From NCBI GenBank assembly GCA_044356295.1, contig JBIKWN010000076.1, positions 1-10,954 on the forward strand: DNA of 10,954 bases, read 5' to 3'. How positions within the stretch are numbered: the stretch's first letter is position 1; every line of letters begins with the position of its first letter. Source of the stretch: Bdellovibrionota bacterium (lineage in GTDB: Bacteria > Bdellovibrionota_C > UBA2361 > JBIKWN01). The translations under genes were made by a program, and so were the position numbers. The notes below the pieces were generated by a model. That model did no database searches and was not told the DNA's origin. It saw only the letters and a program-made list of their open reading frames with translations. Shown piece after piece: positions 2 to 10,811 of this stretch.

Positions 2-1612
2 AGCGGTAAAAATCTCTCGTTGCAGTAAAGAAGTAACATCTTCAGCGGAACTTGCTGCAATTTGCATACATCCAATTAATCGAGAAAAAAATTGGGCAGA
101 AGAAACTTTAGATTTTAGAATCAATGCATCATCTTTTAAAACTGAACAGCTTCCAGATGTAATCACTTCAACAAGCTGAGACGCAGTAATAGAGGTAGGA
201 GAAATTGTTGAAAGAATTTTATTAAAAGAGATCTTTTGAGCAGTTGTGATCCCCTTCTTTTTAGAAATTGTTTTAAGATCCGAAATTTTCTTTTTGTGAT
301 CTACTGGATTTAAATCTGCAAAAAGTGAAACGATACGCTCTTCAATCAAAGAGCGATATTCTGCGCGTATATCTTTAATAAGTAACCCTAAAAAAACATC
401 TATAGAGTCAGTGTCTTTTGGACTTAGCCTGTCAAAGGCAATAAATATTTTAGCCCAATCTTCCCTAGACGGGTCTTTAATTATTTTTAGAAAGTCATCT
501 CTGATTTTTTTTGAAGCTGCTGATTTTGGAGCAATTGCAACGAGTGAATCAATAAGCTCAGGTTGATTCGCTTTTATTATCGGAAGAATTTCTGCTTCTA
601 AATCAGCAGGAATAGTACTCAGGCTTGCTCCAATAACAGCGATATTTTTCTTGTCTATGTCATCAGCACCTTTTAATGAAATACGAAGCTCAGTACCAAT
701 AATAGCTGAAGCAATATCTTGTTGTTTTTCTACGGCTTCTGAAGTTGACGTCTGACTAAGAAGTTTAAGAATACCAATCTGAAGAGTCTTAAATTCAGAA
801 ATATTGAGACTTTCAAAAACAACACGAACAATTTCGGGATGTAAGAGTGATAATTCAGGTAGTGAAGACAGAAGCGCAACCCCAACCCCTCTTTTCTTTC
901 CACCTTCCTTGATAAAATGTTGTGCCAATATCAGGGAATCAGTCTGTGAAGCAGAAGCATGTAGGATTAATTGAGCAATAGCGTATTCTGATAATGAAGA
1001 AATAATTAATCTATCGATAATGAAATCTTTTTTACGAGTAAATAGTTCAAAAAGAATATTTTGAGCAGAAGCAACTTGATGGAGCTCGAGTTCTCTGACC
1101 GAAAGATCTATTAACGATAGTATTTGAGTTTCATCAGTCACTCGAAGCGCCATTAACGATGAGGTTCTAGGGGCGCCAACTCTTAAAAACTCAGGATTAG
1201 ATATGTCATGTTCTAGAGTAAAAAGTGTTGGAATAACTTTTAATGATTCAGGTAATAGAAGAGGAAGAATTGCTAAAGCACATTCCTTTGCTGTTTGATC
1301 CCTTTCAGCATTATTAATTGCAACAAGTTCACCAATTTTTGGTTCATCGAGAGCTGCTATTCCAATACGATTAGGAGTACCGGGAGGTGGTATGTTATTA
1401 CTTCGTGCCCCCAAAGACTCTTTTGCTTTCAAAAGATTATTTAAAAAAGATGAAAAGCTATGTTTCTGATCTGGGGTTAGGGTGCCTGCAATAATTCGAG
1501 CATTGGCACAATCACTATAGATAGCCCTTTTAATATCATCCTCAGCAAAAGCTGCGGAAATTCCAAATCTAAGAAAGAGAACAAGGCATATCCCGAAATT
1601 GAAAGACTTCAT
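2..1612 (-). CDS. Large exported hypothetical protein, predicted alpha-helical (possibly HEAT/ARM-like solenoid); 3'-truncated at window edge, >=537 aa
   Basis: Manual translation from ATG at 1612 shows no stop before the window edge: MKSFNFGICLVLFLRFGISAAFA|EDDIKRAIYSDCANARII...EDVTSLLQREIFTA. The ATG overlaps the TGA of the upstream ABC gene (ATGA) and is preceded by a purine-rich GAGACAGGGG. The N-terminus looks like a Sec signal peptide with an A-F-A cleavage motif. The body is rich in Leu/Ile/Ala amphipathic segments. The fold assignment is an inference. Confidence 0.85.
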   Translation of the reverse strand, partial: MKSFNFGICLVLFLRFGISAAFAEDDIKRAIYSDCANARIIAGTLTPDQKHSFSSFLNNLLKAKESLGARSNNIPPPGTPNRIGIAALDEPKIGELVAINNAERDQTAKECALAILPLLLPESLKVIPTLFTLEHDISNPEFLRVGAPRTSSLMALRVTDETQILSLIDLSVRELELHQVASAQNILFELFTRKKDFIIDRLIISSLSEYAIAQLILHASASQTDSLILAQHFIKEGGKKRGVGVALLSSLPELSLLHPEIVRVVFESLNISEFKTLQIGILKLLSQTSTSEAVEKQQDIASAIIGTELRISLKGADDIDKKNIAVIGASLSTIPADLEAEILPIIKANQPELIDSLVAIAPKSAASKKIRDDFLKIIKDPSREDWAKIFIAFDRLSPKDTDSIDVFLGLLIKDIRAEYRSLIEERIVSLFADLNPVDHKKKISDLKTISKKKGITTAQKISFNKILSTISPTSITASQLVEVITSGSCSVLKDDALILKSKVSSAQFFSRLIGCMQIAASSAEDVTSLLQREIFTA

Positions 1613-3303
1613 ATGTCCCCTGTCTCACATTCCAAGCGCCAATTTCCTCCGCCAGTAAGATCGAGCACGACATCATGATATTTTGAAAGTGATGTGCTGT
1701 AACCAACTGAAACATAACTTTTAACTACAGATTGAAGTTTTTTGTATAAAACCTCTTCCATTTTTTGATCGAGTGCTGTGGTGGCTTCGTCGAGAAATGC
1801 ATATTTTGGTTTCGAAATAAGAAGCCTTGCAAATGAAAGTTTTTGCTGTTCACCAGTAGACAAAATATTTGGCCAATCAACGACGATGTCAAAGCCACCA
1901 AGACGATGAAACATATCCTCAAGTTTTACTGTTTGGATAATTGAAAAAAGGTATTCATCTGAAAGTGCTTTATGTTTTGATGTATAGAGAAGTTGACTTC
2001 TAAGGGTCCCAAGTACCATGTACGGACGTTGCGGTAGGTACATTGATTCTTCACGAGGTGGTGCTGTAATAATTCCTTGACCTGACCTCCATAAGCCTGC
2101 CATTACCCGAAGCATTGATGATTTTCCTGCACCACTTGTGCCAGTGATCAGTAGTGATTGCCCTACTTCGAGTTCTAAGGACATCTCTTTTAAGAGAACC
2201 TGATCTTTCTTTGGTGTATAAACAGAGACTTTTTCGAAATGTATTGCTTCACCATGCTTTAGGATAATTTGTGAGCCGATAAGATCTTTATTACTTTCAA
2301 TTGTATCAAGGGCTTCCCAGAAAGCGCCCAGTCGTGAAATCACAGCTCCAAATGAAGAGAGACTTCCAAAGTTTTGAACGATGATAGAAAGTGCGCCCAA
2401 TACTTGACCAAACGCAAACCCCGCTTGAGTAATTTTTCCAAATTCTAAATCACCATTTAAATACGCCGGCGCAACAATAACTGTAGGTAAAATAGAAACA
2501 AGATAGTTATAGCCGGTAGTGAAAAAATTAAGATTTCTGTTCCAATTAACTATCTCTAAGAGATTGATAAGAGCGATTTTTAGTTTTTGACGAGAACGTG
2601 TTTTTTCTTTCTCTTCATTTCCGTAAAAAGCGATGCTCTCTGCGTTGTCTCGGACATTGATTAACTTATATCTATAATCTGCTTCTTTTTTTAATTGAGC
2701 AAAATTTAATCCAATTAAAGGACGACCTAAAAAATAAGTTGATAGAGAACCAAAAATTGCATATCCAATCACTGAAAAAACAAGTGTTGGAGAAATAGCC
2801 CACAGAATTCCCGTAAACGAAAAAAGTGCAATGAATGAATTAAGAATAATGAGAAGGAATGAAATACTTTGCGAAGTAAAAGCACGTATATCTTCAGCGA
2901 TACGTTGATCAGGATTATCTACCCCTTGAAACGCGAACATTCGATAATAAGCACCGTTAGAAAGATAGCGGTCGATCATTTTTCGACTCAGCCACCTTCT
3001 CCAAAGAAGCGCTAGTCGCTCTTCGGTATAGCGGTAAAAAACAACAATCGGCGTTGCACATGCAAACACTAATAAGTATCGATAGAGCTGCCTAATAAAT
3101 TCATCGCTCTCTCGAAGTGAAAGAGCTGTCATAAAATCTCGCCCTACGTAACTGAGGAATACGTTTACTCCACTTACCAAGAGGGCAAATCCGAGAAGGA
3201 CGAATAAAAGACCAAGTGCAGCAAAACGCATTTCAGAAACAAAGAATGGCTTTGCTATGCTTTTGAACTGAATCCAGGTTTGGCGATTAATACGTGACGA
3301 CAC
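1609..3303 (-). CDS. ABC half-transporter, fused permease + ATPase, ABCD/YddA/BacA(Rv1819c)-like family (ABC_membrane_2)
   Basis: Multiple hydrophobic TM segments in the N-terminal ~330 aa. Family motifs DNPDQRI and EAA-like NAESIAFYGNEEKE. Walker A GTSGAGKS, Q-loop YLPQRPY, signature LSTGEQQ, Walker B FLDE and D-loop TALD. GTG start. Confidence 0.93.
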   Translation of the reverse strand: MSSRINRQTWIQFKSIAKPFFVSEMRFAALGLLFVLLGFALLVSGVNVFLSYVGRDFMTALSLRESDEFIRQLYRYLLVFACATPIVVFYRYTEERLALLWRRWLSRKMIDRYLSNGAYYRMFAFQGVDNPDQRIAEDIRAFTSQSISFLLIILNSFIALFSFTGILWAISPTLVFSVIGYAIFGSLSTYFLGRPLIGLNFAQLKKEADYRYKLINVRDNAESIAFYGNEEKEKTRSRQKLKIALINLLEIVNWNRNLNFFTTGYNYLVSILPTVIVAPAYLNGDLEFGKITQAGFAFGQVLGALSIIVQNFGSLSSFGAVISRLGAFWEALDTIESNKDLIGSQIILKHGEAIHFEKVSVYTPKKDQVLLKEMSLELEVGQSLLITGTSGAGKSSMLRVMAGLWRSGQGIITAPPREESMYLPQRPYMVLGTLRSQLLYTSKHKALSDEYLFSIIQTVKLEDMFHRLGGFDIVVDWPNILSTGEQQKLSFARLLISKPKYAFLDEATTALDQKMEEVLYKKLQSVVKSYVSVGYSTSLSKYHDVVLDLTGGGNWRLECETGDI

Positions 3304-7010: not shown

Positions 7011-8975
7011 CTAAATAAACTGAGGGTGGTTTCTAATTCTAAAGATAAAATCCTCACGCTCAGATTCCTCTAAGTCTGCAGGAAACTGTGAATGACTTCT
7101 TTCCCAGCGAGAAAGCCATTTTGCATCAAGCAGAGGATAAGATTCTTTTTTGGCAGCTTCGGCTGTGAGCATCACAGTTGTTTCTGTTTTTTTCCCAGTT
7201 GCACTTCCATATGCTACATAAAATCCAGCAGCAAGAAGAGCAGCTCGAACCCTGGTAGCAGCTGAAAAAGTAAATCCTGACCAAGAACCAGATCCAATCG
7301 ATGCAAAAAGAGTTTGAAAAGTTTTATAGGTCCAAAGAGGGCTATCTACTTTATAAGAAAATGGATCGTAATACACAATATCGGGCAAAGAAGCCGCAGG
7401 ATAGGTTTTCATAAAATCATCAAGGTACAGATTCCACTGAAACTGTTCAGCAGTAATTTTTTTCTGGTTATAAAGCTCTGTGACCCAAGGATGTTGAGCA
7501 TGTGGAAATTTTGCTTTCTTTGATAAAACTAATTCAAGTGGCTCAAGGGTGATTTCAAAGCTTTCAATAAGTAGGTTACAAACTTTCTCTCCTTGCTCTT
7601 TAAGAGCAAGCCAACAAGAAATAGCACCCATCGCATTTGTGGCAGCACCGAGCCCAACATCCCAAATAGTAACTTGAGGTTCTGACAAGAATCTCTCTTT
7701 TAATTTTGCCTGCTCAACATATAATGTATTTGATTCTCGGTAAGGATCTTCTGAGGAGTGCATAACTTCTCCTGAATCTCGGTGTCGAATTGAAACGACA
7801 TATTTATTCTCTCGATTTTTTCTCTCAACAATTTCGTAAATTTTGCCTGGTGTCGTCTCTTCTTCCTCTGAAAATAATTTTCTTGTTTTTTCGTAATAAT
7901 CACCAAAGGTACCTTGCCTGAGGTTGGTGCGGATATCATTCATGATAGCTCCATAGAAATGAATATTATGAAGCCCTATCCAAGAGTGGCTACTTACATC
8001 ATATGTTTTAATTAAGTGATGAAGATAACTTCTGGTGTAATTTTTACAGGTAAAGCAATCACACTGTGAATCGATTGGGTTTTGATCATCAAAGAAGATA
8101 CTTTTTCGAAGATCAATTTTTCCGGTTCGATTAAAAGCAACACCTTGTTGCCCAAGCATCGTAGGCAACACACAATCAAACATATCAATGCCGCGAGAAA
8201 CTGCTTCAAGTATATCAAGTGGAGTACCAACACCCATAAGGTACCGCGGTTTTCCTTCAGGTAAGTATGAAGCAACAAGTCCTGTCATTGCTTCACGCTC
8301 ATCTTTTCCTTCTCCAACGGCAAGTCCACCGATAGCGATTCCACAAAAAGGCATTTCACTAATTGCCTGTGCACTTTCAATACGAAGTTTTTCAAAGCAG
8401 GCACCTTGTACAATCCCAAACATCCCCTGAGTGGAATCCTGCTTAGCAACTAAAGAACGTTTAGCCCAACGATGAGTCAATTGCATTGCTCGTGCTGCAT
8501 CATCATAGGTTGTTGTTGATGGAACACATTCATCGAGAACCATCATGATATCACTTTGGAAAGCTCTTTGTGCTTCGATGCTTATTTCAGGGGATAGAAA
8601 AATTTTTTCACCGTTTACATGATTTCTAAATACGGCACCCTCTTCTGTGATTTTTCTTGCATGAGAGAGAGAAAAAATTTGAAACCCTCCTGAATCGGTA
8701 AGAAAACCGTATGGCCATTTTGAAAACTCACGGATCCCAGTCCCTTTATTAGTAAAGAATGAAGCTCCTGGACGAAGAATAAGATGATAGGTATTAGCCA
8801 AAAGCATTTGGAAACCCATCTGTTCAATTTCACTTATTCGTTGAGAGCGTATTGCAGCATGAGTCCCAACAGGCATAAAAATAGGAGTCTCAACATCTGC
8901 ATGAGCTGTTTTTAAGTGCCCTAACCTAGCTTTAGTAGAGGAACATTTTTTTTGTATCGTGAATGAAACGCTCAT
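7011..8975 (-). CDS. tgt: tRNA-guanine transglycosylase (aa ~1-368) fused to MnmC2/MnmD-like SAM-dependent methyltransferase (aa ~378-654)
   Basis: TGT motifs: TPIFMPVGT, NTYHL, TDSGGFQ, MVLDEC, GIVQG, GGLAVGE, PRYLMGVG, DMFDCV, and Zn site C305-x-C307-x2-C310 with H336. Methyltransferase motifs: GEVMHS, WDVGLGAATN, ESFE, DIVYYDPFS..DSPLWT, TFSAATRVRAALLAAGF and GKKTE. One continuous reading frame. Confidence 0.92.
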   Translation of the reverse strand: MSVSFTIQKKCSSTKARLGHLKTAHADVETPIFMPVGTHAAIRSQRISEIEQMGFQMLLANTYHLILRPGASFFTNKGTGIREFSKWPYGFLTDSGGFQIFSLSHARKITEEGAVFRNHVNGEKIFLSPEISIEAQRAFQSDIMMVLDECVPSTTTYDDAARAMQLTHRWAKRSLVAKQDSTQGMFGIVQGACFEKLRIESAQAISEMPFCGIAIGGLAVGEGKDEREAMTGLVASYLPEGKPRYLMGVGTPLDILEAVSRGIDMFDCVLPTMLGQQGVAFNRTGKIDLRKSIFFDDQNPIDSQCDCFTCKNYTRSYLHHLIKTYDVSSHSWIGLHNIHFYGAIMNDIRTNLRQGTFGDYYEKTRKLFSEEEETTPGKIYEIVERKNRENKYVVSIRHRDSGEVMHSSEDPYRESNTLYVEQAKLKERFLSEPQVTIWDVGLGAATNAMGAISCWLALKEQGEKVCNLLIESFEITLEPLELVLSKKAKFPHAQHPWVTELYNQKKITAEQFQWNLYLDDFMKTYPAASLPDIVYYDPFSYKVDSPLWTYKTFQTLFASIGSGSWSGFTFSAATRVRAALLAAGFYVAYGSATGKKTETTVMLTAEAAKKESYPLLDAKWLSRWERSHSQFPADLEESEREDFIFRIRNHPQFI

Positions 8976-10028: not shown

Positions 10029-10811
10029 TTAAGGTATCTGCTTCACTGGGTGATAGATTTTATTCCAACGTAACCCTGCTCGTTTAAACCCTGGACGCCA
10101 TCGTAGGGTTCCTTCATCTAATCGACCAATAGGAGTTGGAGGGGTTCCGATGTAAAAATTCTTATTTTCACGAATTCGAAATGGACCGTTACCGCCAAAA
10201 TCACCAATTGTAAAATGATTGCGATGAAGAAGTGTTGGAATAAGAACTTCAGAATGTCCTTTCCACCCTTCGCTTAGTTTTAAATCAATAAACTGCAATG
10301 CTTTTTTTGAAATACGATAGATTGGATGAAAACAACGGATTCTTTCTTCCAGAGGAATTGAATCAGTGTGATGTTCTAAATTCCAAAAAAACCAATATGG
10401 TTCTTCTTGAAAGGTATGTATATGAGAGGCTACAAAATCATACTGAGTTTCATGAAATGATTGAAAAAAAGTTTTCCAAAATCCCCTAAATCGAACATCA
10501 AACTCGATAATCCAAAAGTAATCATATTCTGGATGTGCTCTTGCAAAATGAATAAGTGAAAAAGGAGCACTTCCAGGAACTACTGTTTCTGCGATCATTT
10601 GGAATCCTAGGTTTTTCAGGTCGGGCAATGAGCAGTAGTGAATAGGAAGTTGATCTGTATGGCTGGGTGGTTGAGAAGCGTTTTTTTGCTCACCTTGAAA
10701 GAGTATCCATGTATCACCGAATGAGTTCGTGGCTTTCGCTATTTTACTAGCCTCATGACGCACACTGTCATTATCTAAATGAGTAAGGATCAGGAAGGCG
10801 CCTCGTGGCAT
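10029..10811 (-). CDS. DUF3405-like protein, probable GT-A-fold glycosyltransferase/glycan-modifying enzyme
   Basis: YDYFWIIEFDVRFRGFW (ExD in a DxD-like context), PIYRISKKAL, GHSEVLIPTL and C-terminal IYHPVK match my recollection of DUF3405 proteins. A GGAG lies upstream of the ATG. Confidence 0.6.
   Translation of the reverse strand: MPRGAFLILTHLDNDSVRHEASKIAKATNSFGDTWILFQGEQKNASQPPSHTDQLPIHYCSLPDLKNLGFQMIAETVVPGSAPFSLIHFARAHPEYDYFWIIEFDVRFRGFWKTFFQSFHETQYDFVASHIHTFQEEPYWFFWNLEHHTDSIPLEERIRCFHPIYRISKKALQFIDLKLSEGWKGHSEVLIPTLLHRNHFTIGDFGGNGPFRIRENKNFYIGTPPTPIGRLDEGTLRWRPGFKRAGLRWNKIYHPVKQIP

Follow-up and report, generated by a model that had tools for sequence, protein, structure and literature searches.

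Bacterial Tgt is treated as a one-job enzyme governed by a fixed U33-G34-U35 rule. Two arginines of its signature DCVxPT-R-xx-R-xG, Arg286 and Arg289 in the numbering of Zymomonas mobilis (Zm), are said to read U35, a view attributed to Xie, Liu and Huang (2003); our literature search returned no residue-level statement of it. In eukaryotes, where the family comprises the paralogues QTRT1 and QTRT2, the latter has lost catalytic residues. The architecture that joins a Tgt to an MnmC2 domain is already in print, in Jaroch et al. 2023, 'Alternate routes to mnm5s2U synthesis in Gram-positive bacteria' (bioRxiv 10.1101/2023.12.21.572861). The window analysed here, a stretch of 10,954 nucleotides from a Bdellovibrionota bacterium (GenBank assembly GCA_044356295.1, contig JBIKWN010000076.1), encodes a fusion of this kind, composed of a Tgt paralogue and an MnmC2-type methyltransferase. 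Its Tgt half lacks both arginines, as does a whole clade of relatives. Judged by sequence comparison, and with a probability of about 0.5, this half would be an active, preQ1-using second transglycosylase with altered recognition of the nucleotide that follows the exchanged G.

Residues 267-278 of the fusion (8142..8177, minus strand) read DCVLPTMLGQQG at the place where the Zymomonas enzyme reads DCVLPTRSGRNG. Alignment by phmmer to Protein Data Bank chains sets the query DCVLPTMLGQQGVAF opposite DCVLPTRSGRNGQAF, pairing dcvlptmlgqqgvaf with dcvlptrsgrngqaf of Zymomonas mobilis Tgt (1ozm_A, E 1e-96), while the best match, Thermotoga Tgt 2ash_A (E 6.9e-98), reads dsvfptriarhgtal. Zm numbering, transferred with the alignment offsets +9, +8 and +13, puts M273 and Q276 on Arg286 and Arg289. 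Translation and alignment thus both bear out an earlier note on this DNA, made from the sequence alone, which had claimed the loss of the two motif arginines. The gene and its Tgt half are laid out as follows.

7011..8975, minus strand: open reading frame of 654 amino acids, stop codon included in the coordinates, Tgt paralogue and MnmC2-type methyltransferase in one chain (Pfam)
7878..8933, minus strand: Tgt domain, residues 15-366, TIM barrel and zinc subdomain (Pfam TGT, 441 bits; TIGR00430 passed)
8142..8177, minus strand: motif D267-CVLPT-M273-LG-Q276-QG, canonical form DCVxPT-R-xx-R-xG (translation, phmmer alignment)
8157..8159, minus strand: codon of M273, the counterpart of Zm Arg286 (alignment; A, S, Q or M in the arginine-less group)
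8148..8150, minus strand: codon of Q276, the counterpart of Zm Arg289 (alignment; Q, W, E or K in the arginine-less group)
8175..8177, minus strand: codon of D267, equivalent to the covalent nucleophile Zm Asp280 (invariant in 21/21 fusions; role of Asp280 from a passage of PMC6165067)
8694..8696, minus strand: codon of D94, equivalent to Zm Asp102 (invariant in 21/21 fusions)

The catalytic anatomy of the Tgt half is retained. D94, D148, C150, Q190, V220, E222 and D267 fall on Zm Asp102, Asp156, Cys158, Gln203, Val233, Glu235 and Asp280, with offsets in exact agreement with the residues for catalysis and preQ1 selection that the earlier note had listed as kept. The zinc ligands Cys318, Cys320, Cys323 and His349 (Zm) are present as C305, C307, C310 and H336. 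Y317 and H320, conserved among the aligned fusions, are presumably the counterparts of Zm Tyr330 and His333 in the dimer interface. The base pocket, formed by D148, C150, Q190, the segment G216-E222 (GGLAVGE) and M247, with Zm Asp156, Cys158, Gln203 and Met260 as the equivalents of D148, C150, Q190 and M247, is complete and of the preQ1 type. Its GGLAVGE fits the motif GGhsG/sG, which a passage of PMC10164549 assigns to the preQ1/queuine class, the preQ0 type being GGhsbb. In the AlphaFold2 model, M273 and Q276 sit on a short helix (residues 270-276) directly after the nucleophile-bearing strand. Arg286 has been placed in helix αB, beside the ribose-34 and phosphate-35 pockets, with a pocket floor composed of Val45, Leu68 and Val282 (PMC5395182).

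The homologue set comprised the query and its 150 best representatives at 50% identity, drawn from a search of 1.84 billion cluster representatives (151 proteins). A regular expression applied at least 200 residues from the N-terminus read the motif in 133 of them, the other 18 being fragments or misses of the expression. The arginine pair absent from the window's Tgt half is kept in 99 ordinary representatives; 33 proteins have neither arginine, one (P0068) has the first only, and five fragments among the 18 unread rows are visibly arginine-less. The 99, three of which we take to be of the eukaryotic QTRT1 type, measure 345-550 amino acids, with the matched stretch ending inside the Tgt domain, and about 20 of the 150 best matches are full-length two-domain proteins of 650-736 amino acids. 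All 21 aligned full-length fusions lack arginine at either position (consensus DCILPTALAQQGVAF), answering in the affirmative whether the loss is a subfamily trait, as the earlier note had proposed to check. Close homologues do not retain the arginines: both are missing from 14 of the 14 fusion loci read (the window, L004-L009, L085-L089, and the pieces in genomes G032 and G034). Invariant in the 21 fusions are D94, D148, C150, Q190, G216-G221, M247, D267, C305, C307, C310 and H336, together with the ribose-34 pocket residues V36, L59 and N61.

Compared between the two groups, only Zm286 and Zm289 combine a conservation of 80% or more in canonical Tgt with a retention of no more than 15% in the proteins that lack the arginines, a result that is circular for these two columns because the groups were defined by the motif. 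Its informative part is that no further position was lost. Gains in the arginine-less group are R at Zm240 (31/32) and R or K at Zm304 (30/32). A FastTree phylogeny of 130 Tgt domains unites 33 arginine-less tips and P0068 in one clade with a support of 0.998 and a stem of 0.36, and places the arginine-less P0129 outside it. P0068 (413 amino acids) lies inside the clade with an arginine restored at the first position (DCVIPTRMAWQ); P0129 (379 amino acids) is an odd Tgt reading DGVLPTVDGHQDD, which lacks the Cys and both arginines. The same-genus orthologue of the fusion is 82% identical and has an identical motif, DCVLPTMLGQQGVAF; in both halves, nonsynonymous differences (pN) amount to 0.11-0.13 per site and synonymous differences (pS) to ~0.75, the synonymous sites being saturated. 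Purifying selection acts on both domains. Across these homologues the arginine loss presents itself as a trait of the clade, neither chance nor a single-sequence event.

The genome to which the window belongs (2.96 Mb, 93.6% complete) contains two Tgt-family matches. The second is a canonical tgt on another contig (C53; 370 amino acids, motif DCVMPTRAGRFG), 1.7 kb downstream of queA and followed by open reading frames read by eye, without a profile test, as yajC and secD; this gene, not the fusion, occupies the usual tgt locus beside queA and yajC-secDF. With QueF, QueC and MnmG encoded in the genome, the cell is equipped to make preQ1 and xm5U34. In a survey of 41 genomes of the order, Tgt and QueA were each found in 39, and 13 carry an arginine-less Tgt, all 13 with at least two Tgt-family matches. 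Nine of these carriers have both domains in one open frame, and in G032 the fusion is split over two contig ends. G009 (L101:2141-3334, minus strand), G027 (L099:2410-3579, minus strand) and G038 (L100:2622-3788, plus strand), which belong to one genus, have a stand-alone arginine-less Tgt of 388-397 amino acids with the motif DCILPTALASQGVCF or DCIIPTALASQGVCF; Methyltransf_30 gave no match in any part of their genomes. These forms are nested inside the fusion clade, which marks them as secondary losses or splits and implies that the Tgt half can function on its own. Five distant fusion genomes (three Verrucomicrobiota, one Acidobacteriota and one Myxococcus metagenome-assembled genome) have two Tgt matches each, bringing the genomes in which an arginine-less Tgt is accompanied by a second Tgt-family match to 18 of 18. 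The presence of a canonical Tgt in every carrier genome examined is what would be expected if the fused copy had taken on a new role.

QueF exceeds its cut-off in 10 of the 13 relatives that carry the paralogue versus 9 of the 28 that do not, an excess that is only suggestive because related genomes are not independent, and in all five distant carriers; the QueA pattern is uninformative, since QueA is near-universal in the order (39/41). Taken over the order as a whole, QueF passes its cut-off in just 19 of the 41 genomes, versus 39 each for Tgt and QueA, and many members may salvage preQ1 or preQ0 instead of making either.

The C-terminal half is connected through a disordered segment. The whole-protein AlphaFold2 model presents both domains as well folded (mean predicted local distance difference test score, pLDDT, 89.5; predicted template modelling score, pTM, 0.58), with residues 372-377 disordered. 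The parts of this half, in which SAM denotes S-adenosylmethionine, are listed below.

7794..7868, minus strand: linker, residues ~370-394, pLDDT below 50 at 372-377 (AlphaFold2, whole protein)
7014..7793, minus strand: MnmC2-type SAM-dependent N-methyltransferase domain, residues ~395-654 (Pfam, subfamily profile against Aquifex MnmC2, AlphaFold2/Foldseek)
7635..7661, minus strand: SAM motif I, D439-V-G-L-G-A-A-T-N447 (alignment; motif definition from a passage of PMC3527978)
7356..7367, minus strand: motif IV, D537-P-F-S540, the DXF catalytic-Asp motif of MnmC2 (alignment; a passage of PMC3527978)

Pfam Methyltransf_30 covers residues 493-601 of the fusion at 45.9 bits against a gathering score of 22. 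With 78.6 bits, the domain falls below the cut-off of 136 of the NCBIfam MnmC2 equivalog-domain model NF033855, which makes it a divergent subfamily. A profile of this subfamily, built with stand-alone members of ~280 amino acids located on contigs of up to 995 kb, has Aquifex MnmC2 (3vyw) as its best match among solved sequences (E 1.8e-26), and matches the N-terminal domains of MnmC at ~1e-11 to 1e-14. The AlphaFold2 model of the domain (pLDDT 94, pTM 0.91) has an MnmC2 fold with an N-terminal module over the SAM site, and Foldseek ranks 1-9 are all MnmC or MnmC2, with template modelling (TM) scores of 0.57-0.70. For Aquifex MnmC2, a passage of PMC3527978 defines motif I as (GX)GXGXN and motif IV as DXF, whose Asp is catalytic. 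Motif I is kept in the fusion as D439-VGLGAAT-N447, with the third Gly replaced by Ala, and DXF as D537-P-F539.

Searches of the window's own genome found no other Methyltransf_30 and no MnmM. A PF05430 search found no canonical MnmC in the genomes with the fusion-type methyltransferase, given as 16 in total and broken down into 10 fusion relatives (own genome included) and five distant carriers; the latter have no other clear Methyltransf_30, their sole extra match being one of 24.7 bits in G043. Long canonical MnmC proteins occur elsewhere in the order, in G011, G018, G028 and G039, with a fragment in G014, and all five genomes lack the paralogue. The fusion-type methyltransferase stands alone in G010 (L098:5284-6045, plus strand, 253 amino acids) and G005 (L102:3766-4722, minus strand, 318 amino acids), both of which possess just the canonical Tgt. 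This evidence favours an ordinary MnmC2 role, the conversion of 5-aminomethyluridine (nm5U34) to 5-methylaminomethyluridine (mnm5U34) by the ammonium route used in Aquifex, rather than a new one, and the balance tips slightly towards this half doing the ordinary job on nm5(s2)U34 to yield mnm5(s2)U34.

Put together, the fusion would represent a second, neo-functionalised bacterial-type Tgt that shares its chain with an MnmC2-type SAM N-methyltransferase, the two being connected by a flexible linker. Ordinary formation of queuosine (Q34) would stay with the canonical queA-tgt locus, and the fused Tgt would still exchange guanine for preQ1 made by the cell itself. The change would reside in the short helix after the nucleophile, with both arginines replaced by uncharged residues and basic residues fixed at Zm 240 and 304. 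Recognition of the nucleotide on the 3' side of the exchanged G would then differ, and the enzyme would target a G that lacks the canonical U35 after it, whether the G34 of a non-GUN tRNA or a G in another loop. The earlier note had proposed an active transglycosylase with changed or relaxed specificity; clade-wide arginine loss, an invariant pocket and the coexisting canonical Tgt now strengthen that proposal, in which activity and target themselves stay at the level of prediction.

Several observations weigh against this reading. By overall sequence, the Tgt half would pass for an ordinary Tgt, because its 421.9 bits lie far above the cut-off of the NCBIfam equivalog TIGR00430 (306.75). Arg286 and Arg289 might touch the backbone only, with the new basic residues compensating for their loss and GUN specificity unchanged. 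The structure prediction offers no indication that the halves form a fixed joint active site, given the pTM of 0.58 and the disordered linker, and each half is found alone (the Tgt in G009, G027 and G038, the methyltransferase in G010 and G005), so that the two activities need not be coupled. The 26 flanking open reading frames of six fusion loci have no family in common and include neither que nor dpd genes, leaving no conserved neighbours that would point to a pathway. No QueF match was obtained in the carriers G003, G017 and G031, which are 93-94% complete. The 37 tRNA genes of the window's own genome are an ordinary set with ordinary anticodon loops and no odd member.

Alternatively, both halves may be ordinary enzymes, redundant or just co-expressed, with the fused Tgt still serving the four GUN tRNAs, the arginine loss compensated and the fusion doing no more than co-regulating two wobble-base pathways. 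The score over the equivalog cut-off, the full set of pocket residues, the flexible linker, and the R at Zm240 and R/K at Zm304, which could compensate, all agree with it. Redundancy is nevertheless hard to reconcile with the retention of canonical tgt in 18 of 18 paralogue genomes, and the presence of both arginines in all 99 ordinary representatives and the long stem branch of the clade (0.36) also oppose it; we regard this account as rather improbable. Still less probable is a non-catalytic role, in which the Tgt half would be an RNA-binding or dimerisation module like QTRT2, presenting tRNA to the methyltransferase or pairing with the canonical Tgt. The conservation of Y317 and H320 would suit such a role if, as we assume, they match the Zm dimer interface. 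A passage of PMC6165067 describes eukaryotic Tgt as a heterodimer in which one paralogue is catalytic and the other is not, which offers a precedent. A scaffold, however, has no need of the catalytic Asp pair, the zinc ligands and the base pocket, all of which are invariant in the 21 fusions and under purifying selection, and we consider the role very unlikely. Tgt relatives have moved to DNA before (PMC10516641, and a passage of PMC10164549), and loss of the uridine-reading element could admit other sequence contexts, so that action on DNA, as by DpdA, or on RNA other than tRNA comes into view. The fusion yields no DpdA model match at E ≤ 0.001, its pocket is of the preQ1 type and not of the preQ0 type GGhsbb, and no dpd, restriction or defence neighbours are seen in the window or six other fusion loci, whose context is housekeeping, all of which leaves this target barely credible.

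The two halves could also act in succession, the Tgt inserting preQ1 and the MnmC2-like half methylating its 7-aminomethyl group to give 7-(methylaminomethyl)-7-deazaguanosine in RNA. Fused enzymes often perform successive steps, as in the MnmC1/MnmC2 and MnmL/MnmC2 fusions (Jaroch et al., bioRxiv 10.1101/2023.12.21.572861). The amine to be methylated is chemically identical to the acceptor in nm5U to mnm5U, the catalytic Asp of DXF is kept, and the methyltransferase, at 78.6 bits versus 136, belongs to a divergent subfamily. The methylated base is natural, occurring in phage DNA, where DpdM, a member of DUF3109, makes methyl-preQ1 (PMC10516641). Considered as a relative of the fused methyltransferase, DpdM was ruled out by this same family assignment (PMC10516641). 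Set against these points are the solitary occurrence of the methyltransferase in genomes with the canonical Tgt only and as ~280-residue proteins on long contigs; the arginine-less Tgt in three genomes that lack the methyltransferase; the closest solved relative, which is the validated nm5U methylase of Aquifex; the absence of canonical MnmC from the searched carriers, as expected if the domain fills the MnmC role; the lack of a predicted fixed geometry between the domains; and a full-text literature search that found no N-methyl-preQ1 in RNA. We therefore hold insertion followed by methylation to be doubtful, and it is correspondingly unlikely that the methyltransferase half acts on the aminomethyl group of an inserted preQ1. 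The combined version, in which preQ1 is inserted outside the four GUN tRNAs and then N-methylated by the MnmC2-like domain, producing an unmapped RNA mark, is a long shot. Its sites may be a G34 before a non-U base or a UG in a loop, for example U35-G36 of tRNA-Gln(UUG), a tRNA that the MnmC2 half should already bind. A preQ1-using Tgt with altered recognition of the following nucleotide, next to a methyltransferase with its ordinary role, remains the reading that we prefer.

The genomic context of the fusion gene is housekeeping. In the window it is flanked by a GT2 gene and hemC (Pfam). At 1609..3303 (minus strand) lies an SbmA/BacA-like ABC transporter gene with permease and ATPase fused, whose end overlaps by four bases a 537-residue open reading frame with a hydrophobic N-terminus and no Pfam family (2..1612, minus strand); the two probably form one operon. 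A 260-residue open reading frame at 10029..10811 (minus strand) has as its sole Pfam match a 41-residue piece of DUF3405 (30.8 bits), which we take to be a mainly eukaryotic family. Elsewhere in the genome, aragorn gave two reports of tRNA-Thr(GGT) on contig C50, one with coordinates that span the ends of that contig (c[18085,71]), which suggests a circular or repeated small contig.

Public sources label fusion-type proteins plainly as queuine tRNA-ribosyltransferase or Tgt, and the fusion, since it clears the equivalog cut-off, is annotated by pipelines as an ordinary Tgt. Where Jaroch et al. list the fusions, they mention neither a second Tgt copy nor arginine loss (bioRxiv 10.1101/2023.12.21.572861), and the literature search found no mention of arginine loss in the fused Tgt. 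The fusion architecture itself is known; the loss of the arginines is a real change that defines a clade within a well-studied enzyme family. Should this clade have a different target, an unmapped 7-deazaguanine RNA site would exist in its carriers, which belong to Verrucomicrobiota, Acidobacteriota, Myxococcus, Riflebacteria and the order of the window, and the clade would serve as a natural experiment on the way in which Tgt recognises the base following the exchanged G. 7-(Methylaminomethyl)-7-deazaguanosine is so far known from phage DNA only, made there by an unrelated enzyme. A Tgt variant with relaxed sequence needs would be useful for Tgt-based RNA labelling, and the concrete, testable question raised is where the second Tgt writes.

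Among known systems, DpdA and DpdM parallel the readings proposed for the fusion, in that a Tgt-fold enzyme has switched its nucleic-acid target and N-methylated preQ1 occurs in nature; unlike DpdA, the fusion has no NF041059 match at E ≤ 0.001, a preQ1-type pocket and no dpd context. Eukaryotic QTRT1 and QTRT2 are likewise two Tgt paralogues per organism, whereas the extra paralogue described here retains all catalytic residues. The stand-alone nm5U34 methyltransferase MnmC2 of Aquifex aeolicus (DUF752, 3VYW) shares the fold (TM 0.70), motif I and the DXF motif with the C-terminal half, which differs in its ~20% identity, in DPF versus DAF, in its score below the NCBIfam cut-off and in being joined to a Tgt. 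The TGT/MnmC2 fusions listed by Jaroch et al. (bioRxiv 10.1101/2023.12.21.572861) have the same PF01702 and PF05430 in one chain. Bacterial Tgt (Zymomonas mobilis, Thermotoga maritima; EC 2.4.2.29; TIGR00430) aligns over the whole domain at E 1e-96 to 7e-98 and has the nucleophile, acid/base Asp, zinc site, preQ1 pocket and ribose-34 pocket floor in common with the fusion, which is set apart by the loss of both arginines, its position as a second copy outside the queA-tgt locus and the C-terminal methyltransferase added to it.

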